Source: Malacoraja senta
Lineage: Eukaryota
Length of the DNA: 64,000 nucleotides
Direction of reading: 5' to 3'
NCBI GenBank assembly: GCA_038087875.1
Contig: CM075988.1
Coordinates: 15,068,001 to 15,132,000 of the forward strand
Shown here: positions 9,168 through 63,530 of the stretch, piece after piece
Layout: each line of letters starts with the position of its first letter
Numbering within the stretch: position 1 is the stretch's first letter
The notes under the pieces: model-generated
Told to the model about the DNA's origin: nothing
The model's database searches: none
The model's input: only the letters and a program-made list of their open reading frames with translations
Program-made: the position numbers and the translations under genes

Positions 9168-9300
9168 ATGAGTGACACACGTGGACGCAGTTTTGTTGAG
9201 GTTATTTGTGAGAAGTACAGCCCAGAAAACTTCCCGTGTCGACGAGGAATGGGTATTGGCATTCAAATCGCTTTTAGGCCCCAGGGCTCACCTGTGAAAG
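9168..9300 (+). CDS. TBCEL: TBCEL coding exon 1 (MSDTRGRSFVEVICEKYSPENFPCRRGMGIGIQIAFRPQGSPVK)
   Basis: Acceptor tctctgcag at 9146, ATG 9168, donor AAG|gtgagt at 9300; matches the TBCEL N-terminal CEKYSPENFP motif. Confidence 0.95.
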
Positions 9301-9679
9301 GTGAGTTAGCCTCTATCTGCCACAAAACCTAGTTCTTGCTTGTTTTCTTGCAGAAAATCACCAATTTACCACTTATGTGGTCCTGAAGTAAAATGGATGT
9401 GATGATTGCAGACCCCAAGCAATTCCTTACATGTTTTAATGTTTCCCATGCATTTGAACTGCAAATTCTGTTGATGTGTATTTATGCATCAAGGCTTCAA
9501 CAAACCTCAGAATGAAAGCTTCACTCTTTTATATATTTTTTCTAGCATTTGGGAGAATTATCAATATGAATCTAGAACCAATTTGCAAAGAAATCCATAC
9601 CTTTAGGCGGGTTTTGGTATGGCACTATGGAAAAGGTCCCTTAATGGTCACCGTTACGTTTTTGAATTCTGAAAGAAGG

Positions 9680-11352: not shown

Positions 11353-12159
11353 CACCTTAAGAGGTGACATTACAGACGGATCATCTAGTGAGGCTATATA
11401 GGTGGAGCTAAGGAACAAAAAAAGGGATGATCACCTTGTTGGGGGTGTACTACAGACCCCCGAATAGTCAACAGGAATTAGAAGAACAAATATGCCAGGA
11501 GATTGCAGACAGCTGCAGGTCAAATAAGGTTGTTGTAGTAGAGGATTTTAACTTTCCCAATATGGACTGGGAAAATCATAGTGAAGGGTTTAAATGGGGT
11601 GCAATTCCTCAAAAGTGTTCAGGAGAGTTTTCTTAAGCAGTATGTAGAGGCCCCCACATGTGAGAGGGCAATGCTGGATCTAGTATTGGGAAGGGCAAGT
11701 TAATGAAGTGTTTGTGGAGGAGCCTTTTGGGACCAGTGACCACAGTTCGATTAGGTTTAAAATAATTACGGAGAGGGTCCACGTGTTAAAATGCTCAACT
11801 GGGGTAAGGCCAGCTTTGAGGGTATGAGAGAAGGTTTCGCTCAAGTTGACTGGAGCAGGTTATTTGAAGGGAAAGGAACATCGGCCAAGTGGGATGTTTT
11901 TAAAAGTGTGCTGACGAAAGCTCAGGATATGTATGTCCCAGTTAGAGTGAAGTGCAAAGCAGGCAAACGTAAGGAAGTTTGGCTGACGAGGGAAATTGAG
12001 GTGTTGGTCAAAAGCAAGAAGGAATCATGGGACAGGTATAGGCAGCTGGGCTCAAGTGCATCCCTGGAGGCGATTCGGGAGCTAAGGAATAAACTGAAAA
12101 AAGAGATCAGAAGGGCAAAAAGGATCCAGAAGATAGCTCTGGCGGATAGCATTAAGGAC

Positions 12160-15124: not shown

Positions 15125-17203
15125 GCTAAAGGATCAGTTCCTGTGGATTGGAGAATAGCTAATGTTATCCCACTTTTCAAGGAAGGAGCGTGAGAGAAAA
15201 TGGGGAATTATAGACCAGTTAGCCTGACTTCGGTGGTGGGAAAGATGCTGGAGTCAATTATTAAAAAGGTAATAATGGGGCATTTGGATAGCAGAAGAAG
15301 GATTAGTCCAAGTCAGCGTGGATTTATGAAAGGAAATTCATGCTTGACTAATCTTCTGGAATTTTTTGAGGATGTGACAAGTAAAATGGATGAAGGGAAC
15401 CCAGTGGATGTAGTGTATCTAGACTTTCAGAAAGCCTTTGATAAGGTCCCGCACGGGAGACTGGTGACTAAAATTAGAGCACATGGTATTGGGGGTAGGA
15501 TGTTGACGTGGATAGAAAATTGGTTGGCAGACAGGAAGCAAAGAGTAGGAGTGAACGGGTCCTTTTCAGAATGGCAGGCAGTGGCAAATGGAGTGCCGCA
15601 AGGCTTGGTGCTGGGGCCGCAACTGTTTACCATATATATTAATGATTTGGAAGAGGTAATTAGGAGCAACACTAGCAAGTTTGCGGATGACACGCAGCTA
15701 GGTGGCAGTGTGAACTGTGAAGAGGATGTTAGGAGGTTGCAGGGTGACCTGGACAGGTTGAGTGAGTGGGCAGATGCGTGGCAGATGCAGTATAATATAG
15801 ATAAATGTGAGGTTATCCACTTTGGCAGCAAAAACAAGGGGGCAGATTATTATCTCAATGGGGTTAGGTTAGGCAAGGGGGAGGTGCAGCGAGACCTGGG
15901 TGTCCTTGTACACCGGTCACTGAAAGTTGGCATGCAGGTACAGTATGCAGTGAAGAAAGCTAATGGAATGTTGGCCTTCATAACAGGAGGATTTCAGTAC
16001 AGGAGTAGAGAGGTTCTTCTGCAGTTGTATAGGGCTCTGGTAAGACCACATCTGGAGTATTGTGTACAGTTTTGGTCTCCTAATTTGAGGAAGGACATCC
16101 TTGTGATTAAGGCAGTGCAACGTAGGTTCACGAGATTGATCCCTGGGATGGCGGGACTGTCATATAAGGAAAGATTGAAAAGACTAGGCTTGCATTCACT
16201 GGAGTTTAGAAGGATGAGGGGGTATCTTATAGAAACATATAAAATTATAAAAGGACTGGACAAGCTAGATGCAGGAAAAATGTTCCCAATGTTGGGCGAG
16301 TTCAGAACCAGGGGCCACAGTCTTTGAATAAAGGGGAGGCCATTTAAGACTGAGGTGAGAAAAAAACTTTTCACCCAGAGAGTTGTGAATCATCCCTTGC
16401 ACGTCTCCAGTTGGTTCAGAATGCTGCTGCTCACCTTTTAACTGGAACACGTAAGAGGGAGCACATAACGCCTATTCTGGCCTCCCTCCACTGGCTGCCT
16501 GTGTACTTTAGAGTTCATTTTAAGATTCTTTTATTTGTTTTTAAATCTTGAAATGGTCTCGCCCCGCCTTACCTCTCTGAGCTGCTTCATCCCTACGCTC
16601 CTGCTCGGTACCTCAGGTCAGCTGATCAGCTGCTCCTGGAGGTACCGAGGTCTAAGCGGAAGCTCAGAGAGGATAGAGCCTTCTCTGTTGCTGCTCCGAC
16701 ATTATGGAACACTCTACCTTTGCACATTAGACAGGCCCCTTCACTGTCCATTTTCAAAACTAGTCTTGAAACCCTTTTCTATTCCTTGGCTTTTGACCCT
16801 GCATGAGACTTTGCTCCTGTTTTAGTGTTTCTATTGTTTTTTATTGTTTTTACTGTCTTTTAATGTTTTTATTGTTTTGATTTATGTTTATGATTAGTCA
16901 TGTACAGCACTTTGTTGCAACAGTGGTTGTTTTTAAAGTGCTCTATAAATAGTTTAAATTTTTTTATTAAATTGTGGAATTCACAAATTCCACAATTCCC
17001 AGAGGGCAGTGGAGGCCAAATCACTGAATGGATTTAAGAGAGAGTTAGATAGAGCTCTAGGGGCTAGTGCAATCCAGGGATATGGGGAGAAGGCAGGCAC
17101 GGGTTATTGATTAGGGACGATCTTCCATGGTCACAATGAATGGCGGTGTTGGTTCGAAGGGCCTAATGGCCCCCTCCTGCACCTGTTTTCTATGTTTCTA
17201 TGA
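15125..17203 (+). mobile_element. CR1 LINE, 5'-truncated, with uninterrupted 375-aa RT ORF (15200-16327)
   Basis: NYRPVSLTS, YLDFQKAFDKV, GVPQG, SKFADDT, RPHLEYCVQFW; 3' tail ttctatgtttctatg. Confidence 0.93.
16391..16970 (+). mobile_element. L2 LINE 3' fragment nested in CR1 3' region
   Basis: RLQLVQNAAA..EHITPILASLHWLPV motif; flanked by ttgtgaat/ttgtggaat, where CR1 resumes. Confidence 0.85.
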
Positions 17204-29758: not shown

Positions 29759-30483
29759 CTGATTCATGTGTCTGTGTGCCATTTAGTGCAGTGATGAAGG
29801 ATATTTGTTTTTCTGCCTGCACTTTTGGTCTATTCTTCTTTCATTCCAATTATTAGTTTCTTCCTGTGTAGTGCATATCCTGCACTAAGCTGTGTTGTTA
29901 CCATAAGTATCAACAACCTGTTCCTGGATGTTGAAATTCTGAATGCATGTTCCAAATAACTGCATATAATGTAGAAAGAGATGAATTCAACACTTGAAAA
30001 TTCTGTTTTATTTCAAAATGTATTTCTAACGTAAACATATTACCTAAATAAGAAATGAAAAAAACCCTGCATATCTCATTCTATCATTTCATTTTTTTCC
30101 TATTTTGATTTTACTGTATGAAATGCCTATATGATTTCTAAACAATATCTTCAGAATCTAATAGAATGAGACAATTTATCTGCTGCTTGTTTATATGTGT
30201 GCATGTTACACAGGCACGATATGTAAAATGTAAAATTGTTATTCAGTATTTGTGTAAATATATGAGTTGTGCTGGTTTAGTGGAAAATCATAATTTTTCT
30301 GGTGACAATTCACATGTTTTGCAATGGCTATGTTAACGTGAATGTATTTCTAGAATGTCTCTGTTTATGAAACTAACTGTTCATCCCTGTGTATTCCCTT
30401 TTTTGATCTATTCCACACTTTTTCTTTGCTATATTCTTATTTTTGTGCTCTCTGGCATTTCTTTTATTCCCTTTCAAATGCAG

Positions 30484-30740
30484 GTTGGAGGAGCTCTTCC
30501 TGTGCTTAAATGACTACAGGACAGTTCTGCTATCGCCCTGTTCCTACCCATCACTGCGACTCCTCCATATTACTGACAATAATCTCACCGACTGGGCAGA
30601 GCTGCACAAACTTGGACAGATGTTCCCAGGTCTGGACACATTAATCCTGGCAAACAACCCACTGACCAGCATCATGGATTCACAGGCAACTTTGGCACGG
30701 ATTTTCCCAAACCTACGATCAATAAATCTTCATAACTCAG
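30484..30740 (+). CDS. TBCEL: TBCEL coding exon 4 ([11 protein letters not shown]...[12 protein letters not shown])
   Basis: tgcag acceptor, CAG|gtatga donor; LRRs; inside ORF 30443..30781. Confidence 0.96.
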
Positions 30741-32139
30741 GTATGAAATGGGATAGAATTATTTCACATCACTATGCTTAGAATGCAAATTAAATTTTTA
30801 TTTTGTCTACATTTGTTACGAGTGTCATTCTCGAGTCTGTAAAAATATTTTGAGTCATCTTGTCAGTTTTACAAATATTGGATTGGGCATGTTAGCTGTG
30901 GTTCTTATCATTGCTATTCTACTCGCTTTTGTCCTTTGGGAAATTCCACTGATGTAAGAGAAAGTTTCATGGATAAAAATAAAAGTTTCATTTATTCCAA
31001 CAAATCAGTATAGTGTATTCTGAAAATAATACCTTAATTCAAGAAAATTGGCGACCTTCCTGGAAATATAAATCCTTTAGATCATCCTCTGCAAAGTTTT
31101 GGAGCACTTAATATGAGGCCATGCTATACATTAGCACACATGATTTGGCTAAATGTAACCTGTACCAGTGTAAGCGATCTATATTGGAGTGATCTGTTCT
31201 AATGACTTTTCCTTGAACTCTTTTAAAATGATACTGTAGCATCTGTCTCCAAACCAATTGTGTTTAAAACATCTTCCAATAATCCTAAGCATGATTTATA
31301 AAAAATAAAAAATAAAAATCCCACTCCCGCCACCTTCCAGTTCAGGCATTATCTTATATCATTATCAGAATTTTCATTTCTCTGTTTCTCTTCTATTGGC
31401 ACTGTTAGCTCATTTCCGTTTCATTTTGGAATCATTTTTTGTTTTGTTTGTATTTTTTTATTCTTGCTTTTCCCCAAAATATACCAATTCATTCCTCCCC
31501 CCAACCCCTTCACGTACCTGCCCAACTCTCTGGTTATTTTCATCACCTGTATTTTTCTTGGCTTGCTATGCATGTAATGAACGAACCAAGTATCTGGATC
31601 TGTTGATTTAAGTGAGAAACATTCTCAGCACAACTAACTCCTTGAGCCTTTTATCCCAACCTTCCAAAAATCTGGTTGCTATTACTTGCCTTGTTTACTG
31701 AACATGTTAACATTCCCTTAATACGACCTGCTGCCTTCTTCAAAACATACCTTTTCAGTAAACTTTAACACACCTTATGAAAATTTCATAAACAAGAAAT
31801 TTGTATGATACATTTCACTTGAATCTATGCTGTGTGGTTTCCTTCAGCTACGTGCTCAGAAATTAGCACTTAGTCATTCAGGACTTGTTCTTAACATATC
31901 AGTTCTTCCTATCTCATATCTAACCCTTTTTCTTCCAGTTAATTTCATCCTGTGTAGTGTGTTACTATCAGAATTCCTCATGTTAGATCAAATCTGATTT
32001 GCCTTTTTGTTTCTTTATTCTTGCCACTTTGAACTCTACATACTTGTTTTGTACAACTATTCACTTTGCCCTTTTGAAAGTTCCTGTTCACTTTTGCAAT
32101 GTTATTATCTCTCCGAACTTGTCTGCTTTCTTGCATATT

Positions 32140-34752: not shown

Positions 34753-35234
34753 TGGTGTACTGCATTAGGTTAAAGATAAGGTGGAATAAGACCTTGGGTA
34801 CATTTAAAAACTACGGAGAGAATTTTTAAGCATGAACAATCCTTAAACAGGAATTAATTTAGATCAGACAGCATGGCTGATTAGGGAGTGGGACTTGCTA
34901 AAAATAAAGATAGGAAGAATTTTTGATGTGCTTAGTTTTAAGAGTGGAATAATTTCAATTCCTTGCTCTGACTTTTTACTTAAATTTTTAATGTTTTATT
35001 TTATATTTTAATGGTTATAAGCTAGAGATGTATGTTCAGCTCTCTAAGTCTGAACTAATTAGGTGAAACAAATCCCAAAAAGAAAAATGCCTGCTACAGC
35101 TCAGACAATATGCTACACTCAATCCAACAGGAAACTGTAAGTTTTGCATCCTCATGGGCAAAGTCATACGTTTGCTTCTAATGGTACATTAATTCATTAA
35201 ACCAAATTAAAGATAGACTCTTTTTTTTAAACAG

Positions 35235-35348
35235 GTTACCATCAATTATTCTATTAAACGGGAGTAAAGTTGCAGGAGAGAGGATGGATGCCGAACGATT
35301 TTTCATACGTTACTACTTAAAGCAGCCAGATGACGATTTACCAGAAAG
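35235..35348 (+). CDS. TBCEL: TBCEL coding exon 6 (LPSIILLNGSKVAGERMDAERFFIRYY...LPE), GC donor
   Basis: ttttaaacag acceptor; ends AG|gcaagt; phase 2 fits exon 7 (AG+A = Arg). Confidence 0.92.
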
Positions 35349-36321
35349 GCAAGTGATTCAAATTAAAGATTCTGCTCACTGCCACCCGTTCCCTACTACC
35401 TCTACTTTATTACTACCTTGTTGCTTCAAAGTCTACCTTTTTATACGTTTTAAAAATATAATTTCAAATGAATATGGTCTGACAAACTATGGCTTTGAAG
35501 AGAATATTGCTAATTTCAGTTGAAGTTTTATCAAGATTGAAACCTTGTCGTTCTTTGCATTTTGCACATTTAATTCCTTATCTAAATCGAACAGTCTGTT
35601 TCCCTGCCAACAATTTTACACTAGGAATTCAGGCATTGACATCATCCAGGCAATTCTAGAACACCATAATGGAACTCTAATCCTTATTAAGATGTTGAGT
35701 AGTAAAAGTGGAAAGTAAAAGAAAGAATATTATAGATTTTTTTTTAACATGCTTCCCACTGAGTCATGGAAAATGCTTCAGTTTAATCATGTGATCAGCC
35801 ATATGTGGTTTAATTAATTGACCGACCATATTTACAAGGTAGCCATAAAAGCAATTGAATAAACCAGAAGCTAAACCAAAACCAAGAACAAATGTAATTT
35901 TTTTTTGCATTTTCTTGAGCCTGGCTACCTAGTCATGTTCAATCCTAATCACTGAAATGTCCACTGTCAAAATAATTAAGTGGCCTAAATATTTTGACCA
36001 ATTTTTGAAATCTTCATGTGCAAAATATACAATCCCCATCACCATGTTTGAATGTGTTTGTTGAAGAATCTCAAAAGACTTGAAATATTTTCGTTTCCCC
36101 CCCCCCCCCCCCCCCCCCTCATCTCTAACTAGCCCTAGCCTCTCACTGTCTCGGCAGTCATTGATTAGAGGTGAGCCACACTCTTCATACCTGGTTCTGG
36201 GTTTGCCTCTATATTTTTTTGGCTCTCGGTCCTAGTTGACTCAATAAAATGTTACTTCTACAGAAAAGCTACTCCTCAGCTATTTTTGAGACATTTATTG
36301 TATCATCGCCAATGCTGTTGT

Positions 36322-37620
36322 ACGTAGACACAAGGAACTGCAGATGTTTGTTTACATAAAATAGACACAAAATGCTGGAATAACAGATTAGGCAGTATCT
36401 GGAGAACATGCATAGAAGACGTTTTGGCTTGAAGCCTTTCTTCAGACTGATAATGGTGAGGGGTGGGGGGGGGGGGAAGAAAGCTGGAAGAGAGGTGGGG
36501 GGGCAGGACAGTGATAGGTGGATATAGATGACGTTTTTTTAAATTCTCAATTATATGGATTACATGCAAACGTCTATTGGCACCATCCCTCAACTCTTTC
36601 TCTGCTACATTAACGACTGCATCAGGGCTGCCTTCTACAGAACCCATGCAGAACTCATTGATTTCATTAGATTTACCACAAAATTCCACCCTGCCCTCAA
36701 ATTCACTTGGACTCTTCCCTGACTCCCCTTTCCTGATCTCTGTCTCCATAACAGGGGATTATCAAGTGGCGTCTACTACAAACCTACTGACTCCCACAGT
36801 TATGTGGATTACACCTCTTCCCACCCTGCCTCTTGCAAAGATGCTACCCCCTACTGTCAATTTCTCTGTCTCTGCCACCTAAGTTCACAAGATGAGGCTT
36901 TCCATTCTACGTCATTCGAGATGTCCTTTTTGGTAGATGTCTTCTCACCTGCTATTATTGGTGGATCCTTCACTCGCATCTCCTTTGTGTCCTATATTTA
37001 TGTTCTTCTTTCTCCCCCCCCCCCCCCCAGATGGAACAAGGATAGAGATCCCATGGTTCTTACCTTTCCTTCCACTGGCCTCTGCATCCAACAATCATTT
37101 GCCAACTTTTATGCCACCTTCAATGTGATGTCACCACCAGTCACATCTTCCCATCTCCCGCTCTCTCCCTTTTCTGCCTTTTGCAGGGACCGCTCCCTCT
37201 GCAACTCCTTGGTTCACACAGCTTCCCACCCAGACCACCCCCTCCCCAGATACTTTTCCCTGCAACTGCAGGAGATGTAGCACCTGTCCCTTTACCTCCA
37301 CCCTCTCACGTCCATCCAGGCAGCCCAACAGTCCTTCCAGGTGAGACAGTGCATCTCCTCTAACCTCTTCTACTGCATACGGTGTTCCTGATGTGATCTC
37401 CTTTACATCAACGAGACCAAGCTAACCATTTTAATTCTCCTTCTCATTCCCCTATTATCCTTTCTGTCCTGGACCACCCCCATTGCCAGAGTGAGTCCAC
37501 ATACAAACTGGAGGAATGGCACTTCTTATTCCGCTTGTGTAGCATCCCATGGTCCAATGGATTGAACATTAAATTCTCCAAGTTTGGGTAACTAACCAGC
37601 AATTCTCTTCCCTGCCCCCA
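36322..37620 (+). mobile_element. Penelope-like element: inverted pLTR (36322-36530) followed by degraded RT-thumb and GIY-YIG region
   Basis: YINDCI (YIDD-like), PFLD-like and YYKPTDS..YVDYTSSHP motifs; GIY-YIG C-terminus as at 22252. Confidence 0.8.
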
Positions 37621-37869
37621 CCTCTATTCTCTCCTCTCTTCCCTGTGCCCAATCTGGAACAATTGTGTATTGAGCAACTTCCCACAGTTCTGTTTCATCA
37701 TCTATCTCAAATATTCACCCTTCAGCAGAATGTTTCTTACAAATTTTGAGTAAAAATGTTCAAAGTTACATACAAAATATTTAAATATACATATTGCTTC
37801 ATAATTTAAAAAAAAACTACTAGAGCGTCTTTTGTCTTTCCCGGTAAGAGTCCTAAAAATCTTCTCTAT

Positions 37870-38180
37870 TGTCTCCTTATAAATCTATTCTACAAGCTCT
37901 CTAACTTAATCATATCTTTCCTGCCCTGCTGTGTGGCAAAGAACTGCACACAACATTTCTTATGAAACCAAGCATACACCTGCTTCATCACCCTGTCTAC
38001 CTGTGTTGTCACCTTCAGGGATCTGTACACCATGGTCCAACTGGTCCACAACTCCTCTCAGGACTCCTGCCCTGGTTTAACTTGCCAAAATACATAAGTT
38101 CACACTTAACTTAATATGCCATTCCTTGCCCAATTTCCCAATTGTTCTAGATCCTGTTGTAACCGTAGATACCCTTCACC
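37870..38180 (-). mobile_element. Highly degraded CR1 fragment
   Basis: Patchy similarity to CR1 ORF2 copies. Confidence 0.5.
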
Positions 38181-38717
38181 GGCTGAAAAATAACAATTCA
38201 ACAATTTTTCTACTTACAGTATTCTTTAGTATTCACATAAAGTGACCCTTTAATCCATGCAGAACATCTTCTGCAGTACTTTTAGAAGTCTCTGTACTCA
38301 AATAGTCCACAAACTCTCCCTTGCATCAAGTCATTCCAATAAAATTTGGCAAACTTGATTGTCACAGAATTTGTTTTTTTCCTTGAATTCATCTTTGACC
38401 TTCCATTTTCTTATCTACTTGTTTCAGTGGCATCATTCTCAGACATGGATTGCACTTCCAGGTATATGTTGATGAAATCACTCCCAATGATCATATGACT
38501 GCCTCCATACAATTGAAATATATGACTGAATTTTAATGATTCAGTTTTTCATTTTGGATGCACATTGGGTGTAACTTTTTCATCAAACTACCAGGCTTTA
38601 TTTCAAAATGTTTGTTGGTCTGCCCTTACTTGTGATGTGAACCATGCATACCAACCAAATTCGGTTTGTAACTAGTTGCCCAACCATTGAGGTTGGAATG
38701 CGTAAAGCATCGATGTA

Positions 38718-40291
38718 CAGTGCCCTCCATAATGTTTGGGACAAAGATCCATCATTTATTTATTTGCTTTTGTACTCCACAATTTAAGATTTGTAATAGG
38801 AAAAAAAACACATGTGGTTAAAGTGCACTTTATCAGATTTTAATAAGGGCCATTTTTATACATTTTGGTTTCACCATGTAGAAATTACAGCAGTGTTTAT
38901 ACATAGTTCCCCTCCCCATTTCAGGGCACCATAATGTTTGGGACACAGCAATGTCATGTAAATGTATTCTTTGCATGCAATGACTGCTTGAAGACTGATT
39001 CATGAACATCACCAGTTGCTGGGTGTCTTCTCTGGTCATGCTCTGCCAGGCCTGTATTGTAGCCATCTTTAGCTTGTTTTGGGGGCTAGTGCCCTTCAGT
39101 TTTCTCTTCAGCATATAAAAGGCATGCTCAATTGGGTTCAGATCGGGCGATTGACTTGGCCACTCATGAATTGACCATCTTTTAGTTTTGAAAAAAATCC
39201 TTTGTTGCTTTAGCAGTATGTTTGGGATCATTGTCTTGCTGTAGAATGTACTGCCGGCCAATGAGTTTTGTTTGAACGAGCAGATAGGATGTGTCTATAC
39301 ACTTCAGAATTCATAATGCTACTACCATCAGCAGCTGTATCATCAATGAAGATAAGTGAGCCAGTACCTTCAGCAGCCATACATGCCCAGGCCATAACAC
39401 CCCCAACACCGTGTTTCACAGATGAGGTGGTATGCTTTGGATCTTGGGCAGTTCCTTCTCTCCTCCAAACTTTGCACTTGCCATCACTCTGATATAAGTT
39501 AACCTTCGTCTCATCTGTCCACAAGACCTTTTTTTCCAGAGCTGTGGTTGCTCTTTTAAGTACCTCTTGGCAAACTGTAACCTGGCCATCCTATTTTTGC
39601 AGCTAATCGGTGGTTTGCATCTTGCAGTGTAGCCTCTGTATTTCTGTTCATGAAGTCTTCTGCGGACAGTGGTCATTGACAAATCCACACCTGACTCCTA
39701 AAGAGTGTTTCTAATCTGTCGGACAGGTGTTTGGGGATTTTGATTTATTATAGAGATAATTCTTCTGTCATCAGCTGTGGAGGTCTTCCTTGGCCTGCCA
39801 GTCCCTTTGTGATCAGTAAGCTCACCAGTGCTCTCTTTCTTCTTAATGATGTTCCAAACAGTTGATTTTGGTAAGCCTAAGGTTTGGCTGATGTCTCTAA
39901 CAATTTTATTTTTGTTCCTCAGTCTCATAATGGTTTCTTTGACTTTCATTGGCACAACTTTGGTCCTCGTGTTGATAAACAGCAATAAAAGTTTCTAAAG
40001 GTGATGGAAAGACTAGGTGCTGAGAGCTCTCATATACCTGCATTAAGGAGGCATTTAAACACACCTGAGCAATTACAAACACATGTGAAGCCATGTGTGC
40101 CAAACATTATGGTGCCGTGAAATGGGGGAACTATGTATAAACACTGCTGTAATTTCTACATAGTGAAACCAAAATGTATAAAAATGGCCTTTAATAAAAT
40201 CTGACTATGTGCACTTTAACCTCAAAGTGTGGAGTACAGAGGCAAATAAATAAATGGTGGGTCTTTGTCCCAAACATTATGGAGGGCACTG
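38718..40291 (-). mobile_element. Tc1 transposon (IR/DR type), full-length, transposase frameshifted
   Basis: TA TSD; ~200-230 bp TIRs starting cagtgccctccataatgtttgggaca with internal direct repeat; GRPRKT, WTDETK, VMAWAC and [12 protein letters not shown] in broken frames. Confidence 0.95.
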
Positions 40292-40649
40292 TATCTCAAA
40301 GTGTAGTTGTACCTCCAGCCTGCAGTTCTCATGGAAGATCTGTGAAAGGCTTTTAGAGGACAAAGATGGCTTGAAGTGCAGTTTCCTACTAGAAGTGAAG
40401 AGAAGGCGGGGGCATCCGAGCTACAGTGCATGCTGTGCATTCAAATACCAGAATGAAGCAAGCCTGCATGAAAATGCCCAAGTGGTTAGAGCAGCAGTAT
40501 TGTCATCAGAACCTGGTTCCACTGAACTCGTGAGCACCAATGGTAAGTGTAGGTCTACACTACTTCCTCAAATCACCTTTATCATTCCTTTCACCTTTGC
40601 TTCCTGTCTGTACAATTCCTTCTTAGCTATCACTCTCCCCTCTTTCCCC

Positions 40650-41100
40650 CTTTGGAGAATGTGCAGATAAGGTCTACTAAAATGCTGCTTGGATTAGAGG
40701 GCATCATCTGTAAAGAGGTTAGACAAACTGGGATTGTTTCTCTATGGTATTGGAGATTGAGGGGAATCTTGATATGTATGCAGAGATAGAGTAGACAGTC
40801 AAAACCTTTTTTCCAGGTTGGAAATGTCAAAGATTAGGGGCATAGGATTAAAGTCACAGGGTCAAAGCTTAAAGGAGATGTGCAGGGCAAGTTTTTTTTA
40901 AACACGGATAGTGGTAGGTGCCTCAAAAACACTGCCTGGGGTGATGGCGGAAGCAGATATGATAGCAGCATTTTAAAGGCTTTTATTTAGGCACATGAAT
41001 ATGCAGAGAATGGAAGGATGTGGATCATGCAGATGGAAGAGATTAACTTGGCAACATGTTCGGCATGGACTTTGGGGGCTGAACTGCTGTGTTCTGTGAC
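40650..41100 (+). mobile_element. Degraded CR1 3' fragment
   Basis: Similarity to the 14600-15060 CR1 3' region. Confidence 0.7.
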
Positions 41101-43299
41101 TGGGAGATAGGTTGTCAGGGATGAGCAAGATGGACAAAATTTAAGATTAGATAATGTAGAGTTTGGAAGTGTAGCTAGGACAGCATCAACCTAATAAAGG
41201 TATGATGAGGATTTAATTGTCAGTTGATCTGAAGCAGGGTCAGAATTGGGCATTATTAGAGCACAAGGGATGGGAAATCACAGGGCATTATCCAAATCAT
41301 GAATATTCGTAAAAGGTTTACCTCAGAATGAATATCTAGCTATCACATTTCTTCACCTCAGCAAATATCAGCAACCTTCATATTTTCAAGCTGTATTGTC
41401 AAGAAAGACAAGGTGCTTTTTGTATCCTTTTTGTTCCTTTTCTCTTTTAGGTTCTCAGAAATGGAGATTCTTGCACAGGAGATATCCCCCTTGGGGCCAC
41501 ACCACCTCATCCACCTCTAGCATTCTCTGCATGTGTGTTAGAGGGGAGACTCTAACTCCTGATAAAACTTCAGATAACAATAGCAGGGCAGCTCAGGGAA
41601 GACCAGGCCCTTTCCCAGCCCCTGAGGATGAGAGAAATGCAGGCTTCATGGATAAGAAAACTGCTTTCCTCCCTGAAATAGTTGTGAGGGAAATGCCAAG
41701 GTGCTTAAACAACATGGCTAAGTGTGTAGAGGAATCTGCTTCAAGCCAATGTGGCATCAGTCCGTATGGTGTGAGCAATCTGCAGTTTTACTTTAGTCAG
41801 TTTGATCGCTCCAGGATAGCAGCAGTCGATTCCTCAGAAATTACGTCTATTACATTAATTTATTTGTTCATTTAATACAAAATTCAAAAACTATTTTGGA
41901 GTGATATGGTTACTGCAGTTGGAAGTTATGTTTTCAAGTGTTGTCTCAAGGGCTTAAAGCCTTGTAGATCAACTATAAACATTTTGGGATGGGAAAAGAA
42001 AGTGACCATTTTTTAATATTTGAAAGGGGCAGCATGCACAATCTGTCTCTGATAGTAATATCCTGCCACGTGAATTATTTACAAAGCACCTACTATTTAT
42101 ATGTGCATATCTAGACTTGGGGGCAACTAATAGGTGTTTACTTAACTCAAGAGACTAATACAAATTCTGCAGTTATCACAAAGAAGGTGTGACCTACATT
42201 GTACAAGTCAATTCTATTTTACATTATTAAGAAGCACAGTGAACAACATGCCAGCATTAATTAATACACTTACAGTGATAGAGTATCTTCCAAGCAATGA
42301 GAGTCTGATACAGTTTGAACAGATCAGACGTGAACCAAGGTTGACTTTGAAGCAACAGCTGCAGATGTTGACCTGGGTTGAACTTTAAATAGGTGAACAA
42401 ATTTTAATTTGTTTCTTACCTCGTATATTAACTGCAGTTGTTTGGCTGATTGATGCAAATGGAGAGCAATAAAACAATGTACTTCTGGTTACATTCATTG
42501 CAGAACTGCCGTAAAACTATGCATTGCGTAACAGTATCTAACAATTTCTAAGTATCCTAAAACTCAGGAAAATAAAGCCTTTAATAAGAGATCTCAGTTC
42601 CATTGTATCTTTTTTATGGTGCAGATTATGCCCGATCCTTTAAAGTTTGTATCTCATTATTTGCTTTGTCATTGTGTAGAATTGCACTGTAATTGGTTGA
42701 AGTAATGAATCCTGACATTTGCAGCTACTGGCTATTTGTAAGCTGCACAAAGAACCGATTCATTGTAAAATACTAGTGTCATCGTCTTCTGACTGACATT
42801 TAACTTTAGGAATGTGACTTACAATTTATCTTGGACTTTACTTGCAAATGTATGTTAAACAGGCTGCAATAGTTAGGAGGATAACTGGCTTCTTAGTGAA
42901 AAGTTTCATTATTAAACATTTTGATGTTTGATAGCTATCAGTATGGGTCATCTTTCTTGTGATTGGAACAAAATAATTGAATAATCATGCGATCTCAAAA
43001 ACGTCAATTGTCACTTAAATTTCAATAGTTAAGAAAATAAATCAGGACCTGGATATTGTATAAAAAGTTACATTAGTTGCTTTTGGCTAGAAGTCCCTGG
43101 TATGTGTGTAGTCTTGGAAAAACAGTATAGAAGAAGCCATGTAATCATTGATACTATGTAATCTAGCTACGCATCGGTATTTATTTAGTTCCATTCTAAC
43201 CACCTGAAATTTGTTTCCATAACAATTTGTGGTAAAATATTCCGTCACAAAAACCTAGTGAAATATTAGCCTTGTCTGTTGTAGGGATGAGGCATTTAG

Positions 43300-44290
43300 A
43301 ATTAGCGTTATACAGCACAGAAAGAGACTCTTTGGTTCAATTTGTCCATGCTGACCAAGGTGCCTGCCTGAGCTTGTCCCATTTGCCCCATGCGTCCCCT
43401 TTAAACCTTTCAAATTAAATCTATGCTCTCTAGTTTTAGACTCCCTTACCCTTGGGAATAGGTATGTACTGTCCACCTATGCTCCACATCATTTTATAAA
43501 CCTCTAAGGTTGCTTCAGAGAAAACAGTCCCAACATATCTAGTCTTTTCTTATAACTTAAGCCCCCCAGTCTCAGCAACATCCTTGCATCTTTTCTGTAC
43601 CCTTTCCAGCATAATTACATTCTTCCTATTGTGGTCTCACAAACATCTTGTATGCCTGTAATATAAGAGTACAAGAGTTGTACTCTTGCCCTGAGCGATG
43701 AAGGTAAACGCACTGTCCACTTTTATCACTACCCTGTCCGAATGTATCTCCACTTTCAGGAAACTTTTGTACTTGTACACCTAGGTCTCTCTGTTCTACA
43801 ACACTCCGCAAGACCCTGCTATTCACTGTGTATGTCCTTCCCTGATTTAACTTGCCAGAATGCATGTCTTTGCAATTGTTCGGGTTAAATTCTATCTATT
43901 ATTCCTTTGCCCACTTTCCCAGTTGAGCTGAATATTTTTGTAACCTTATACAACCACTGTCACTGTACCCCCTATTTTGCTGCCTCTGCAAACTTGCTAA
44001 ATATGCTATCTACATTCTCACCCAGATAATTAATATAGATGACAAAGAACGAGGGGACCCAGCACTGATCTCTGTGGCACACCCTTGGTCACAGGCCTCC
44101 AATCTGAAAAGCAACTCTCTGCACCACCCTCGTGCCTCTTACCGTAAACCCATTTTTGTAGTCAGTTGCTAGCTCACTCTAAATCCCAGATGATGTAACC
44201 TTCCAGACCAGTATACCGTGCCGGAACCGTACGTATCATGTAGAAATGTTACTGGAACTTTATCAAAGGCCTTGCTGAAGGCCATGTAGG
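43300..44290 (-). mobile_element. Degraded CR1 RT/3' fragment
   Basis: FSKAFDKV, NQGRTYTVN..EQRDLGVQV, ESKTREH fragments. Confidence 0.8.
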
Positions 44291-44974
44291 TAATTACCTT
44301 ATTTTTCAAGGATTTATTTTGTCTCCTGATTTCCTTCTTGAATGTAACCTGCATCGCTTTTCATCAATTCGCTGGCATAGTTGGTCCCAAGACCGTCCTT
44401 TGTATTATTAAGTACACATTTTAATTGAGAATCGAGCGCACATTACTGAATTTTACCCTGCTTACTCCAGGTGCAATACAGGCAAAAAAGTACTACCCCA
44501 ACATCTTATCCTAGTAATGCCCTGGTTATTATCTTAATTTTATTCCCTAAGTAGTCTAGTTAATTTTAAAATTAAGCAGTTTTAATTTTTTAAGTAATGG
44601 TCAGGAATTCAATTTCCTTCTGGCTGCATTCCAAGAAGTTCCTTTTCCTTATGAGTGTTCTACCATTGTGGAGTATTTCCATTCACTTCCTTTACAATCC
44701 AAAAGCATTGTTTCTTGCGATGAACAGCACCTGTCACTTGGTTCAGTGCTCTATCATCCTCCGTCAGAATTCTTTGACAGTTTTTATGCCTTGTGTTTTG
44801 TAATTAATAATGCATATTTGTTATCTTTCCAAACAAATTCCAGTAACTGATTACTTGTTTTGTCAAGCTAACAATTCCTTTTGTCTTTTCCATTTTATTA
44901 TCTCTCATTCTTTGGCACAAGTACAAATTGCTCCACTTATTGTATTTAGAAACAATCTCTAAATCTCTTTAGGA

Positions 44975-45254
44975 AGAGTCGAATTTTATTATCATATTTC
45001 CCAAACAGAACAATGAAATTCTTACTTGCAGCAGCCCAACAGAGTATCGTAAACATAGTACTCTATATGAAAAAAAGTTGTGAATAATTTATATACGCAT
45101 ACAACTTTTCTTCATATAGAGTACTATGTGTACTGCTGCTAGTAAGCATTTCATTGTGTGTGCGTGTGTATATATATGTGTGTGTATAGATATGTGTATA
45201 TATGTGTGTATATATATATATATGTGTGTGTATATATGTGTGTGTGTGTGTATA

Positions 45255-45311
<57 letters not shown>

Positions 45312-45660
45312 GTATGTATACATATGCGTGTGTGTATGCATACATACACATGAAAACAAAACCAGCAAATAGTGCAAGAAGACAAATCCAATGCCCCCAA
45401 GTCTATGATCGACAGTGCTGGAATAACTCAGCGGGACTCGCAGCATCTCTGGAGAGAGAGAATCCATTCCTTCTCTACAGAGATGCTGCCTATCCTGCTG
45501 AATTACTCCAGCACTTTGTGTATATCTTCGGTTTAAACCAGCATCTGCCATTCCTTCCTACACATTTCGTCTGCCGTTTATGTAGTTCAGAGCTTATTTG
45601 GTGGTTGTAGTATTTAACAGCCTGATGGCTGCAGGGAAGAAGCTGTTCCTGTACCTGGTG
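44975..45660 (-). mobile_element. Rex1-type 3' end with expanded microsatellite and nested Penelope hairpin (45412-45565)
   Basis: Matches 5470-5780 (aatgaaattcttacttg; gttcagagcttatttg...agctgttcctg). Confidence 0.75.
45155..45352. repeat. Compound (TG/TA/CA)n microsatellite
   Basis: Direct reading of sequence. Confidence 0.95.
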
Positions 45661-47604
45661 CTATAATTTTACACTTTCTAATTTCCATCTGAGGTGTAAT
45701 TCCTTTGTCGTCAGATCTGTTCAAGTGGTGCACTCAAACTAGAATGTCAAGGAATATCAGTAGAGACTGGCTAATGGAGGACCAGATTGCTTTTCAGGCT
45801 CAATTGGAGCTTGTCTATGAAAAAGCATTGGTGTTATGCCTGGGAATTCTTAGATCGTCTTTTCCTGCTGTAGCAATCCATTAACTACAGGGGCCACTTC
45901 TGAAAGGGAATCGTTCCCATTACTAATCAATGGAAGTGCCTATGATTCATTTAGATATTTACATTGCAGTAACTTGGCTGACTTATTCCACAGGCAACAT
46001 GACCACATTCAATCTTGTTAATTTTTTTTGTGTTTCACGCTTCAGATCTTACAGTAATGTCACTGCTTGGCCTTTCATCCAAGGAGCAAGTTGGCAATGT
46101 ACATCACCATCATGAAAGCAGTTGAATTATTTATATTAGTGAATGGTTCAGATATGAGGAGCCACCAGTCAATATTACAAAAGCAGAATATGAGGAATGT
46201 TTGTTTGGCTGATCTTTTATAAAAAGGTGTTAGCATTGTAACAGTGCATCTAGTAAAATAACAGTACAAATTGGCTTGGTGTACAATTGGATCTCTTTCC
46301 CAATAGAAAAGGTTGAGGCCTGCAGTGTGACAGTGGACAAGGGGGAATCTCTAAGGAATTATTTATTCTGCTGGATGGCATGTTCTGTTTTTGCCAAATA
46401 CTAATTATGCCTTGATCTCTACTGAAAGAAAACTCTTAATCGTTTGCGTCCAATACTTTGCATTAAACCTGGAGAGAAAAGGCCAAGATAATGCTGGAGT
46501 CTAGGTTTACTGACCTATTAGTTCTTCATAATACATTTGTATTCTCTGTCAGGGAAAGGTAAGCTCTTATTCCACCAGTAAGGAAACATCATACAATGAA
46601 TGCTGTATTTTACCCACTGCCCTAGGATTTAGATGCCATTGCCCTCTATAGAAACTTTGGTCTAATGTATTGAACCTACTTCTGTTTTTAAAGTTTTGTT
46701 ATCAATATTCAGATTGATTGTTTAATTCCTGCTATGATCCAGGATTTCTTGTTGTTCGAGATCTACATCTTGTTTCATGTGATTTTAATTATTTGGTGAA
46801 CTGAAATATTCTTATTTTAAGATTCTTCTGTCTGCATTGAATCAGTCTCTTAGAGTGCCTTCAGAATGTTTATGCATATACAACTAGAATCATTGCAGAT
46901 TTGCAGATTTTGCAGGCTGGGAAAGTGGCAATTAGCCAAGCGGCAAAGTGGATTTGATTAACAGAATTGGAAAGTATTCCTTGCTTAAGGTATCATTTCA
47001 GCTTCTGATTATCTCCATTTTGAGTTGGGAAGAAAGCTCATATTGTGCAGAACTGCAAATGGTTCTAACTGGGACCAACTCTGTTAGTGAAGCGCTGCTG
47101 GAGTGAAAGTGAAGCCGGTCAGGTTCAGATCTCCAGAGACACTTTCAGGTGCTGGAATGTCCCTTCCAAACAACAGCTTTCTGTTCCAGCTTTGTATGAG
47201 CCTAACTCTCCCATGAACTGCTCATATTGCCTTATTTGTTGACAGGGACAGTTCCAAATACTCCAGGGACAGCGTTTCATTCTCGCATTCATTCTTTAAA
47301 ACACACAGGAAATGAGCAACATTTGAGCTGTTATCTGGTTAATTACAAATTTATTGCTAAAATTATATTCTTTTCATAATCAGTTGAGCAATTTGTTTTT
47401 GCATTCTATATTGAACAAATCTTCTTTGATTTTTTTTTGTCTGAGATGATGAGCCTTGTCTAGCCGTGTATGTAGTAAGGCTCTCAAGAAGTAATTGATG
47501 TGGCTGCTAGAAGTACTTAGATGCTGCACACATTGTTGTTTTCTGCAGAGCCTCTTCAGTAATTTTATATTGCTCCTGTGTATTTCTTAATTAAAGTCTA
47601 CTTG

Positions 47605-48165
47605 TGGATAAATGTGAGGTTATCTCCATTGGAGGCAAGAAAGGAAAAGGCAGATTATTATCTGAATCGTGTCAGGTTATGAAAAGAGGAAGTACAGTGA
47701 GACCTGGGTGTCCTAGTACATCAGTCACTGAAAGTAAGCATACAGGTACAACAGGCAGTGAAGAAAGCTAATGGCATGTTGGCCTTCATAACGAGAGGAG
47801 TTGAGTTTAGGAGCAAAGAGGTCCTTCTGCAGTTGTACAGGGCCCTGGTGAGACCACACCTGGAGTATTATGTGCAGTTTTGGTCTCCTAATTTGAGGAA
47901 GGACATTCTTGCTATTGGGGGAGTGCAGTGTAGGTTCACGAGGTTAATTCCCGGAATGGCGGGACTGTCATATGATGAAAGAATGGAGCGATTGGGCTTG
48001 TATTCACTGGAATTTAAAAGGATGAGAGGGGATCTTATAGAAACATATAAAATTATTAAGGGATTGGACACGCTAGATGCAGGAAACATGTTCCCGATGT
48101 TAGGGGAGTCCAGAACCAGAGTGCTGGCTCGAAGGGCCGAATGGCCTACTCCTGCACCTAATTTC
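47605..48165 (+). mobile_element. CR1 ORF2 fragment, same family as 15125-17203
   Basis: KKANGMLAFI...RPHLEYYVQFWSPNLRKD nearly identical to the 375-aa ORF. Confidence 0.9.
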
Positions 48166-50584
48166 TTGTGTATCTCTTCCTTTTAAAATTCCATGATTAA
48201 TTTACCTATTATGGAACATCGCATTGTCAATATGTGTGTGAATTTTTCTTAACTGTATTTGCTCCAGTTTTCAAGACTCTTCTCTTGTCCAACAAACCTT
48301 TATAGAAGAGAAGAGATATTCTTACCTTCCTCAATTGCCTTGCATTGCTTTAATATCATAATTATATTACCCTTTTTTCCTTATCCTTATTTCTAAAAAA
48401 AAAATTCTAGTCTCTCCATAATTTCAATCATTCAGGTCAGATGGATGTTCTCCCGAGGTTAACATGACTTCGGGTCTGAAGGCATTGTCGTCCATTCAGC
48501 ACCAATTTTCTACATTCGTTATGTCCCGTGATAAAAAATCATGGGAGAATGTTACCCCTTCATGTTCTGAATTGCATTTTAATTTTAAGTCATCCTATGA
48601 TTCACGTTTAGTTCATACTTGTGTTTTAGTTTAGTTAACTTTCACAATTCTTACTCTTCCACCCAACTCGCAATTTACGACTGCCATTATTATCCCATGT
48701 TTCTTTCAACATTATAGTTAGTATCTTTACATTAAGTGACAGCATGAAAGAAATGGTGTCCCTTATCCTTCCTTGATGCCAAATCTTTCCACTGTCCGCC
48801 AACCCAGAACGTCTGTTCTTCCAATAATTCTCTGTCAATCGTGCGCTTCATGTCATATTCCAGCTAGTAACCTGTTATGTTGATCTTAATCATGTACATA
48901 AGATGTATCTCTGTATGTTGCATCAGTAATACCCATAGTAGTGTCCATATAATTTTGAATGGACAAGTAAAGCAATAAGAAATTTTATATATAAAAGCAA
49001 ATTACTGCGATGCTGAGATCAGAAATGGTAGAAGTGCCTGTTAGCCCACACAGCATCCTAGAAGGAACATCAAGTTCACCTGAAAAGCAAAGGAGATTTT
49101 CAATACTGAAAAGGGTGTATCAATTCTTAGGTGATAGGTAGAAGAACAAGATCATGAGTGTAGAATCCTTTGATTGATCTTGATAGTTGTTAGCATGGGT
49201 ATAATATGGCATTTACATGCATGGCTGAAAAGATGTCTCAAAGAGATGAGTTTAAATTCTTGGGATAATGAGAAAATCTGAGGTTGGACAAGCAAGTCAC
49301 AAGTGCTGTGAGAGGAGCACGTATCAAATTTGCAAGAAGATGTGGAAATAGCAGATCAGAGAATAAAAGGAACATATCAGAGTTGAAATAAACCAGATGA
49401 GAAGGATAAAAGTAAGATGGATAAACTGATTTCATGTTAATCATTTCAAATGCATAATGCTGTCTGTGCATGTTCTGAGTTTCCAGATGGTACAATATAG
49501 TGGCATTAGCAGAGGAATATTGTTGAGCTGTAGTGAATCACATATTCTATTACAGCATCTAAACAAACGTTGATTAGGTTCAAGTTAGGGAATGAAAAGC
49601 AAAGTGTAGCTTTGCTGAGATTATTTTAGATCGTAAGGGATTCAGCATTAGTGAAGCAAACTGATGCTGACTTGAAAGATCAGCCATGGTCTTATTAAAT
49701 AGTGGAGCAGACATAAAGGGCTGATTAGTGTACTCTTCCTAATTCTTGTGTTCTTGTGCAGAATTCTGAATGATGAAGGAAAACTTTGCATAATTTTCTT
49801 CTGTGATCCAAAATCGGAATTGAATTGTGTAATTGTATTAACTCCACAAGACACAATTGTGATATGTCAGTGTTTACTCTCCACACAAGCTAATCCTAAT
49901 AGGATATGTTTTTTTTAAAAAGTAAGACAGTGCAGATCTGAAATATAACAGAAAATGTAGGAAGTACTCCGCAGTTCGGACAGCATCTATGGTGTGGGAA
50001 GCATGGTTAATGTTTTCAGTTAATGACCATTCATGAGAACTAGGAACAATTCGAAAAGAAGCTTGTCTTGAGCTACAGAGAAAGGGTTATGATTAAGATG
50101 TGGTAACATGGAAACCAAGAGAAACGGAATAATGCAAGTAGTGTTGACCCCAGCACTCGCAGAGAGAATATGATGAAGGCCTGTTAATTGAAAGTGATAC
50201 CTCTAAAGGAACTCCAAATAGAAAGTGATGACTGGGGACAGTAAAGAGTGAGAAAATATGGTAAAAATGTGAGATGCAGAACATTGATGGAAGTCTGAAA
50301 TAAGACATTGCTGGTCAGGCAGCAGGTGTGGAGAAAACAAAGGTGGACAAAGAATAACATGATATCCAAATTGAAAACAAAACCAGATTTGATTTATCAC
50401 TTCAAAACATTACTGTTTGGACAGCAAAGATGATCTTGCCAAATGGTTTCATTCTCAATCCTCCCTATGATCCCTCCATTTTTTAATCTCTTACACTGAA
50501 CCAGCAGAACCCAATGTAAGCTATAAGAATATGTGGAGTGTCTCATCTTCTGATAGCTTGGTTTGACCATCTGAAAATAATGGT

Positions 50585-50728
50585 CTTAAGAAGGGTCTTG
50601 ACCTGAAATGTCACCCATTCCTTCTCTCCAGAAATGCTGCCTGTCCTGCTGAGTTACTCCAGCTTTTTGTGTCTATCTTTGATTTAAACCAGCATCTGCA
50701 GTTTCTTCCTACCTACCTACACATTTTG
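50585..50728 (+). mobile_element. Penelope pLTR mini-insertion next to exon 7 acceptor
   Basis: 15-bp TSD tctgaaaataatggt (50570-50584, 50729-50743). Confidence 0.8.
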
Positions 50729-50761
50729 TCTGAAAATAATGGTTGTCCATTTGTTTTCCAG

Positions 50762-51086
50762 ATATCATGAACTGGTAGCACAATATGGTGTGTTGGAACC
50801 GTTGGCTGTGGTTGACCTCCGGCCCCGGAGTGGTGCCAAGATTGAAGTTCACTTTGAGGGTAAAGTTGAAGTGATGAATATTCGTCTCGATCAGACTGTG
50901 GGTGATCTGAAGAAACACCTTCGGACTATCGTGCAGTTGTCAACCAATAACATGCGGTTGTATTACATTGATCAAGACATGGTAAACACATTTGGACCAG
51001 AAGAAATGAGATACAGCATGCGTGCTCTTCACTCGTTTAGTATTCGTGATGGAGATGAGATTCATGTAGAACCAAAAACAAAATAG
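50762..51086 (+). CDS. TBCEL: TBCEL coding exon 7, ubiquitin-like domain, stop TAG
   Basis: ttgttttccag acceptor; [21 protein letters not shown]...[11 protein letters not shown]...GPEEMRYS...EPKTK*. Confidence 0.96.
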
Positions 51087-61639: not shown

Positions 61640-63530
61640 TGACAGTGGGAGAGTCTAGGACCAGAGGGCACAGTCTCAGATTAAAAGGAGGTACAGTGCA
61701 TTCAGAAAGTATTCAGACCCCTTCACTTTTTCCACATTTTGTTACATTACAGCCTTATTCTAAAATAGATTAAATTCATTTTTTTAATCTTCAATCTACA
61801 CACAATACCCCATAATAAAAAAGTGAAAACAGGTGTTTAGAAATGTTTGCAAATTAATTATAAAGAAATAACTGAAATATCACATTTACATAAGTATTCA
61901 GACCCTTTACTCAGTACTTTGTTAAGGCATCTTTGGCAGTGATTGCAGCCTCAAGTCTTCTTGGGTATGATGCTACAAGCTTGGCACACCTGTATTTGGG
62001 TAATTTCGCCCATTCTTCTCTGCAGATCCTCTCAAGATCTGTCAGGTTGGACGGGGAGCGTCGATGCACAGCTATTTTCAGGTCCCTCCAGAGATGTTCG
62101 ATCGGATTCAAGTCCGGGCTCTGGCTGGGCCACTCAAGGACATTCACAGACTTGTCATGAAGCCACTCCTGCGTTGTCTTGGCTGTGTGCTTAGGGACGT
62201 TGTCCTGTTGGAAGGTGAACCTCTGCCCCAGTCTGAGGTCCAGAACGCTCTGGAGCAGGTTTTCATCAAGGGTCTCTCTGTACTTTGCTCCATTCATCTT
62301 TCCCTCGATCCTGACTAGTCTCCCAGTTCCTGCCGCTGAAAAACATCCCCACGGCATAATGCTGCCACCACCGTGCTTCACCGTAGGTATGGTATTGGCC
62401 AGGTGATGAGCAGTGCCTGGTTTCCTCCAGACGTGACGCTTGGCATTCAGGCCAAAGAGTTCAATCTTGGTTTCATCCGACCAGAAAATCTTGTTTAGGT
62501 GTCTTTTGGCAAACTCCAAGCGGGCTGTCATGTGCCTTTTACTGAGGAGTGGCTTCCGTCTGGCCACTCTACCATAAATAAAGCACTGTTGCAGATATAG
62601 TTGTCCTTCTGGAAGATTCTCCCATCTCCACAGAGGAACACTGGAGCTCTGTCAGAGTAACCATCGGGTTCTTGGTCAACTCCCTGACCAAGGCACTTCT
62701 CAGTTTGGCCGGGCGGCCAGCTCTATGAAGAGTCCTGGTGGTTTCATAGTCCTTCCATTTAAGAATGACGGAGACCACTGTGCTCTTCGGGACCTGCAAT
62801 GCTGCAGAAATTGTTTTATAGCCTTCCCCTGATCTGTGTCTCGACACAATCCTGTCTCGGAGGTCTACGGACAATTCCTTCGTCTTCATGGCTTGGTTTT
62901 TGCTCTGACACGCACTGTCAACTGTGGGACCTTATATAGACAGGTGTGTGCCTTTCCAAATCATGTCCAATCAATTTAATTTACCACTGGTAGACTCCAA
63001 TCAAGTTGTAGAAACATCTCAAGGATAATCAATGGAAACAGGATGAACCTAAGCTCAATTTTGAGTGTCATAGCAAAGGGTCTGAATACTTATGTAAATG
63101 TGATATTTCAGTTATTTCCTTTTAATTACTTTGCAAACATTTCTAAACACCTGTTTTCGCTTTTATATTATGGGGTATTGTGTGTAGATTGATGATAAAA
63201 AAATGAATTTAATCCATTTTAGAATAAGGCTGTAACATAACAAAATGTGGAAAAAGTGAAGGTGTCTGAATACTTTCTGAAGGCACTGTACCTTCAGAAT
63301 GAGATAAGGAGGCATTTATTTAGCAAGAGGGTGGTGAATCTGTGGAATTCATTACCACATACAACAGTGGAGGCCAAGTCATTGGGTATTTTTAAAGTTG
63401 AGATTGATAGGTTCTTGATTAGTAAGAGGGTTATGGTGAGAGGGCAGGAATATGGTGTTGAGAGGAAAACCTAGAAAAGCTATGATCAAATGGCAGAGCA
63501 GACACAATGGGCTGAATGGCCTAACTCTGT
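61640..63530 (+). mobile_element. CR1 3' fragment split by a Tc1 insertion
   Basis: VGESRTRGHSLRLKG before the Tc1 and F.NEIRRHLFSKRVVNLWNSLP after it. Confidence 0.8.
61694..63288 (-). mobile_element. Tc1 DD34E transposon (IR/DR type), full-length, transposase broken
   Basis: TA TSD; ~215-bp TIRs cagtgc(a/c)ttcagaaagtattcagac; MKTKELS..HTH..GRP ORF (62569-62889) and catalytic ORF (61911-62567) with WSDETK, QQDN-x-PIE (34 residues between D and E). Confidence 0.96.

Follow-up and report, generated by a model that had tools for sequence, protein, structure and literature searches.

The window analysed here, a stretch of 64,000 nucleotides of the Malacoraja senta genome, contains the TBCEL gene (Table 1). 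We located its exons using tblastn, with the RefSeq skate TBCEL isoform X2 (P0007) as query against the window. The alignment runs through residue 318 of P0007 to position 35349; the exact cut, after 35348, is required by the junctions of isoform X2 (LPE-R-F...) and of the canonical protein (LPE-R-YHEL). Canonical TBCEL is described as a protein with leucine-rich repeats (LRR) and a C-terminal ubiquitin-like (UBL) domain (PMC3789837). In the window, the exon at 50762 matched Ubiquitin_2 (Pfam, E 6.7e-8). The last intron thus delimited (35349-50761, 15,413 nt) is of the GC-AG type.

Table 1. Positions of TBCEL and of the features discussed, numbered from the first letter of the window.
Feature	Position	Strand	Remarks
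TBCEL exons	9168-9308; 17631 onward; 26938 onward; 30482-30760; 32887 onward; 35235-35348	+	tblastn of P0007
TBCEL exon 6, last shared exon	35235..35348	+	end ...DDDLPE plus AG; acceptor ...aaacag|GTTACC
GC donor of the last intron, GCAAGT	35349..35350	+	direct sequence reading
Tc1/mariner (Sleeping Beauty-like) copy, decayed transposase	38716..40293	-	terminal inverted repeats 38716-38791 / 40218-40293
Segment A ("exon A"), open and phase-compatible, GTAAGT donor	40319..40542	+	judged non-exonic
High-copy interspersed repeat between segments A and B	40650..41083	.	own-genome search, depth
190-codon stop-to-stop ORF, frame of the earlier note	41303..41875	+	probably mostly 3' UTR in this species
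TBCEL alternative last exon (exon B + 3' UTR)	41451..42595	+	3' end placed from AATAAA signals
Predicted coding tail of the UBL-less isoform	41451..41520	+	23 residues, then TAG 41518-41520; script translation
Two AATAAA poly(A) signals	42468-42473, 42571-42576	+	script scan, sequence reading
Canonical TBCEL last exon, UBL domain and stop codon	50762..51086	+	acceptor ...ttttccag|ATATCA; ORF 50688-51086

An earlier note on this DNA had proposed that two further exons inside the last intron, here called segments A and B, are joined to exon 6 and replace the UBL domain with 216 novel residues, giving an LRR-only isoform of 533 aa. What it had read from the letters was confirmed, and its interpretation is partly supported. 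Segment A spans 224 nt, with TTGTACCTCCAG upstream and GTAAGT downstream. Segment B (41451-41875) spans 425 nt, is preceded by a long pyrimidine tract and TAG, and ends with the TAA at 41873-41875; AATAAA was found at both 42468 and 42571, by a script scan and by reading the sequence. Once the two bases carried over from exon 6 are counted, the phases agree and the joined frame has no internal stop; the translation given in the earlier note was reproduced by script. The acceptor of segment A had been called only moderate, and it has eight pyrimidines in 12 positions.

The two segments had also been described as non-repetitive, and each is single-copy in the 1.94-Gb genome. The search with segment B returned one candidate, the segment itself. 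The search with segment A gave 39 non-self matches among the best 40 of 562 candidates, all confined to 40230-~40305, that is, to the end of the Tc1/mariner element, which thus recurs at 39 other genomic places with 95-100% identity (again among the best 40 of 562). The element itself matches the Pfam families DDE_3 and HTH_SB, both under the curated score cut-offs. Its end at 40293 lies 24 nt before the AG of acceptor A (40317-40318), so that the branch-point region of this acceptor is likely transposon sequence. The genomic contigs of three relatives start at 40268 or 40269, inside the same end, which suggests that they share the insertion.

For comparison we used four sequencing runs, one from the same species (X7) and three from relatives diverged by ~4% (X1, X9 and X10), all of them represented by genomic contigs. 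None of the 12 runs listed is recorded as RNA. The repeat between segments A and B had very high depth in all four runs; in the genome search, the 39 strongest of its 42 non-self matches (best 40 of 8915 scored) were 71-79% identical over query positions 451-898. Neither this repeat (40650-41083) nor the Tc1-like end at 40293 nor the GC, instead of GT, donor of exon 6 had been mentioned in the earlier note.

A UBL-less TBCEL isoform in skates

A search with the peptide of segment B against longer proteins yielded a single match among 262 candidates: P0006, a protein of 439 aa with LRR Pfam families, encoded on a Logan contig of 2201 nt. Its cluster at 90% identity has seven members, namely five Logan contigs (1810-2466 nt) and two RefSeq proteins, XP_055516747.1 from Leucoraja erinacea and XP_032905718.1 from Amblyraja radiata, both of 355 aa and both named [quoted passage not shown]. 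All seven consist of TBCEL residues 1-317 (...DDDLPE) followed directly by the translation behind the 41451 acceptor, and the sequence of segment A is absent from every one of them. Over residues 1-317 they match P0007 fully or at all but one position, except for the Amblyraja protein, with eight differences. Six introns are missing from these sequences, so they stem from spliced RNA. We considered whether the spliced contigs could come from a retrocopy and rejected this within the scope of an own-genome search: of the 13 matches to P0006, eight were TBCEL exons on this contig, in their order, and the remaining five had E values of at least 0.6. In Pfam, P0007 matched seven LRR families and no UBL family, and neither the tail nor the 190-codon ORF matched any family. 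The part of the earlier proposal that concerned an LRR-only TBCEL isoform without UBL, with a terminal exon in the last intron, therefore stands, carried by the seven cluster members from relatives. The UBL-less alternative last exon was in fact already present in the automatic RefSeq annotation of the two skates named above.

Aligned to the window with tblastn, P0007 covers 35188-35349 and then 41452-41505 at 94% identity, after which the alignment resumes in a different frame at 41505-41552. The window keeps both splice sites of the junction between exon 6 and 41451. Across this junction (35348|41451), it reads an Arg junction codon and 22 further codons up to TAG at 41518-41520, an in-frame stop within the terminal exon, with the poly(A) signals at 42468 and 42571 downstream; the relatives read A at 41518, so this TAG is absent there. 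The comparison identifies segment B as a genuine alternative last exon of TBCEL, apparently spliced to exon 6 and not to segment A. Its use at 41451 in this species we infer from orthology with the relatives and from the intact signals. The predicted UBL-less product would have ~340 residues, with the LRR kept and no UBL, and the 3' end of the exon probably follows 42468 or 42571, to judge from the intact AATAAA signals. The tail of 216 novel residues in a 533-aa product is thus replaced by a predicted tail of 23 residues, ending at the stop at 41518-41520. Neither did the proposed reading frame of segment B hold up, since the relatives join exon 6 directly to segment B, one frame off the long ORF.

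Isoform X2 (XP_055516747.1 and XP_032905718.1) and the predicted form in the window thus share the gene, the end of exon 6, the orthologous acceptor, the retained LRR and the loss of UBL, and their first 18 tail residues are 94% identical. They differ in the tail, which has 38 residues in isoform X2 and 23 in the window, the latter being short by 3 nt and 7 nt and having its own TAG; none of the annotated proteins seen came from the window's own species. These differences, the two indels and the separate stop codon, would fit a case in which the alternative last exon is used in other skates and is silent intron in this species. We regard this as unlikely, however: the acceptor AG, the pyrimidine tract and both AATAAA signals are intact, we saw nothing disabling, and the identity over the first 18 tail residues also speaks against it.

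A gene of its own, nested in the TBCEL intron, was another explanation to be weighed, and a stop-to-stop ORF at 40254 does open with an ATG. This ATG lies within the transposon end, though, for which reason the candidate was rejected; moreover, no homologues were found and the only transcripts seen across the region start in exon 1 of TBCEL. We consider the chance of a nested gene to be negligible.

We think it quite probable that the GC donor of exon 6 is spliced either to 50762, for the LRR+UBL protein, or to 41451, for an LRR-only protein of ~340 residues with a 23-residue tail. Under this model, splicing from the donor at 35349 to the distal exon at 50762 would give the canonical LRR+UBL protein. 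Splicing to 41451, with cleavage and polyadenylation within the intron behind 42468 or 42571, would give the LRR-only protein. Use of the proximal terminal exon, which carries poly(A) signals of its own, would compete with the splice to 50762, and segment A would be a chance open stretch of unique intron sequence beside a transposon end. Such competition between a proximal terminal exon and distal-exon splicing is a common source of C-terminally truncated isoforms. Donors of the GC type are weaker than those with GT and are enriched at introns subject to alternative splicing, which would agree with a splice choice at exon 6. The LRR-only form would lack whatever the UBL domain contributes, and could act as a competitor or be inert.

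Segment A and the long open reading frame

The role of segment A as a TBCEL exon found no support. Besides its absence from the seven isoforms, none of the 20 scored candidates among proteins of 131-2000 aa contained it; these protein searches cover gene-caller records only, so that a rare transcript with segment A could be missed. We also examined the genomic contig of the relative X1, for which all 18 substitutions over 40268-40708 were listed. Eleven fall in segment A, nine of them non-synonymous and two synonymous (chance mean 3.1 synonymous); this test counts substitutions, and the contig also has five gap letters. The divergence of segment A from X1 (11 of 224 nt, 4.9%) is close to that of the next 107 nt of the intron (5 substitutions, 4.7%), a neutral pattern. 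The frame that segment A would feed into segment B does not appear to be conserved either. P0001, P0004, P0005 and P0007, all from relatives, shift frame against the window near 41500-41505. The underlying difference, apparently an indel of 7 nt, would move this frame out of the long ORF within a few codons in the relatives. Altogether, nothing in the sequences compared points to constraint on segment A, to its expression or to conservation of its frame.

The original three-part model (exon 6, segment A, segment B) nevertheless had points in its favour. The phases fit, both frames are open and GTAAGT is a perfect donor. Only in this species is the long ORF brought into phase with segment A, by the difference of 7 nt near 41500. 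Neither element is common by chance: a phase-compatible open AG..GTRAGT segment of at least 224 nt occurred in 2.5% of 200 simulations of 35349-41450, and an ORF of at least 190 codons in 0.7% of 300 first-order Markov simulations of the intron. For a single locus either one is thus out of the ordinary, although both were selected in hindsight. A match of phases by itself means little, since 188 phase-compatible open AG..GT segments occur in the real sequence and 145 on average in the simulated ones. Against the model stand the absence of segment A from isoforms and protein records, the 9:2 ratio of non-synonymous to synonymous changes, the moderate acceptor with a branch-point region in a transposon end, and the apparent loss of the joined frame in the relatives. 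Pfam, run on four peptides, returned no family for three of them and none for either candidate exon, and AlphaFold2, run without an alignment on the 140-residue peptide, predicted no fold (mean pLDDT 35.7; single-sequence prediction is weak evidence). We therefore hold the 533-aa isoform to be highly improbable.

The long ORF of segment B is a separate matter. The 141-codon part that the earlier model would translate (codons from 41453) lies one frame off the frame that exon 6 gives when joined to 41451, and being off the used frame, it would be 3' UTR in this species. The whole 190-codon ORF starts 148 nt (49 codons) upstream of the 41451 acceptor, inside the intron. We additionally searched the segment B peptide against 1.84 billion representative proteins and obtained three matches at E <= 0.001. 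One is P0001, a mechanical ORF of 186 aa on a ~2.5-kb Logan contig of a relative, 90% identical over residues 17-140. The other two (E 6.5e-5 and 8.2e-4) are long repetitive proteins and were treated as spurious. Two further mechanical ORFs, P0004 and P0005, behave like P0001, matching residues 17-140 at ~90% identity with a frame switch upstream. Three of the seven isoform tails enter the long ORF, namely P0009 (144 residues), which shares its stop with the long ORF of the window, and P0006 and P0012 (122 residues each). When the P0009 tail (residues 312-461) served as query, the same cluster was the sole match among 173 candidates, and nothing outside skates came up. In Pfam, a 138-aa ORF gave two sub-threshold matches (E 0.16 and 0.78).

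These observations bear on the possibility that the long ORF is a present or recently translated C-terminal extension, under some selection and switched on and off by indels among skates. Three of the seven isoforms read its frame, and the ORF is uninterrupted in the window, P0001, P0004, P0005 and P0009. Of the ten substitutions listed for X1 at 41497-41620, six are synonymous in the long-ORF frame (chance mean 2.7, P = 0.026), and an ORF of this length is rare by chance. The first three of these substitutions, however, lie near the indel and could stem from the alignment. The two RefSeq models built on genomes end after 38 residues, in a different frame, and an apparent 10-nt deletion shortens the ORF in P0006 and P0012. 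The amino-acid divergence from the window (12-13 of 124 shared residues) is roughly the neutral expectation at the 3.7-4.9% DNA divergence of the unique pieces of the intron. The run of 49 codons into the intron, the lack of a predicted fold and the lack of homologues outside skates also argue against translation. We judge such an extension very unlikely. The presence of a 190-codon ORF within a real exon of ~1.1 kb remains an unexplained coincidence.

In a related form of the idea, the long ORF would be no accident but a coding extension of the UBL-less TBCEL that arose recently and only in skates. It would be in frame with exon 6 in some of them (tails of 122-144 residues in three of the seven sequences), shifted out of frame by small indels in others, and reachable in this species only through an exon like segment A. 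We find this very unlikely; if it were true, the birth or death of a protein tail would be visible across living species.

Tail variation and related systems

We return to the preferred reading, in which exon 6 is joined directly to 41451. The tails of the seven relatives measure 34, 38, 38, 40, 122, 122 and 144 residues. Compared to all seven, the window is short by ~3 nt plus 7 nt, which may be losses in the window or gains in the relatives. The differences among tails seem to come down to a stretch of ~25 nt, with one base change and deletions of 1 or 2 nt, and to a deletion of ~10 nt farther on, as read from the protein frames of the relatives. With lengths so variable and small indels, the tail sequence appears unconstrained. 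The variability in length and frame is equally compatible with a functional truncation and with a product that does little or nothing. Tails of 23 to 144 residues among close relatives make this a clear case of an unconstrained alternative C-terminus. The locus is also a warning that a long ORF and fitting splice phases are no evidence of coding. What is real here is an alternative last exon of an ordinary kind, by which TBCEL loses its UBL domain; its importance is small, and its value modest.

A full-text search of a limited part of the literature brought up no paper that describes a TBCEL isoform lacking UBL. Canonical TBCEL and the UBL-less isoform have exons 1-6 and the LRR in common; the UBL-less isoform ends before the UBL. 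A parallel exists in C. elegans, where the predicted effect of the coel-1 alleles nx110 and gk1291 is loss of the UBL domain and the animals are described as superficially wild-type (PMC3789837). Like the skate isoform, these alleles would yield a TBCEL-family protein without UBL, but they are engineered or mutant deletions, whereas the skate form is a splice form. As the animals are reported to be superficially wild-type, no function of the UBL-less form follows from them. The same source reports that TBCEL commits alpha-tubulin to proteasomal degradation (PMC3789837), and a natural LRR-only form could for this reason show what the UBL domain contributes. With respect to the mechanism, Kv11.1 is reported to have a C-terminally truncated isoform from intron 9 of KCNH2, an example of isoforms that arise through intronic polyadenylation or an alternative last exon (PMC7829756). 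The gene is different, but as described there the general mechanism is the same as that proposed for TBCEL, with a proximal intronic terminal exon and its poly(A) site.

Splice donor and tail variation of the TBCEL isoforms

The donor of the last TBCEL intron, at 35349-35350, reads GC (GCAAGT) rather than GT. A cut after 35348 is needed by the canonical junction, leading to the exon that encodes the UBL, as well as by the junction of isoform X2, whose alternative last exon lacks this domain.

Seven isoform X2-type proteins from relatives (P0006-P0012) were nearly identical over their first 317 residues, yet had five tail forms. Judged from the protein frames, these differences probably stem from one base change and small indels inside ~25 nt, together with a deletion of ~10 nt further on. 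The sites are orthologous to ~41530-41560 and ~41785 of the window, and the differences may lie between species, be polymorphic, or reflect assembly errors.

Repeats and transposon-like sequences

The last TBCEL intron also contains a Tc1/mariner element. A copy of its 65-76-nt end, at 95-100% identity, is present in each of the 39 other places scored (of 562 candidates), so this seems to be a young and abundant family. In three relatives, contigs start within this same end, which suggests that the insertion is common to the window and these relatives. The interspersed repeat of the same intron has at least thousands of genomic copies (8915 first-look candidates, of which 40 were scored, at 71-79% identity). 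By their translations alone, the first five long ORFs listed below look like reverse transcriptase fragments of retrotransposons, and the sixth long ORF looks like a second Tc1-like transposase.

Repeats and transposon-like features of the window
Feature	Position	Strand	Remarks
Tc1/mariner element (Sleeping Beauty-like)	38716-40293	minus	transposase decayed; long terminal inverted repeats
Interspersed repeat	40650-41083		high copy number in genome
Compound microsatellite, TG/TA-rich	45157-45308		same intron as 40650-41083 repeat; perfect (AC) run, 22.5 copies
Long ORF	1040-2233
Long ORF	5711-7002
Long ORF	10494-11430
Long ORF	15194-16327
Long ORF	47701-48186
Long ORF	61911-62931	minus

Base disagreements with sequencing runs

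At 42122 the window has G, whereas all four runs compared, including one of the same species (X7), have T. At 42697 it has T, against C in X7. These mismatches are either polymorphisms or assembly base errors.
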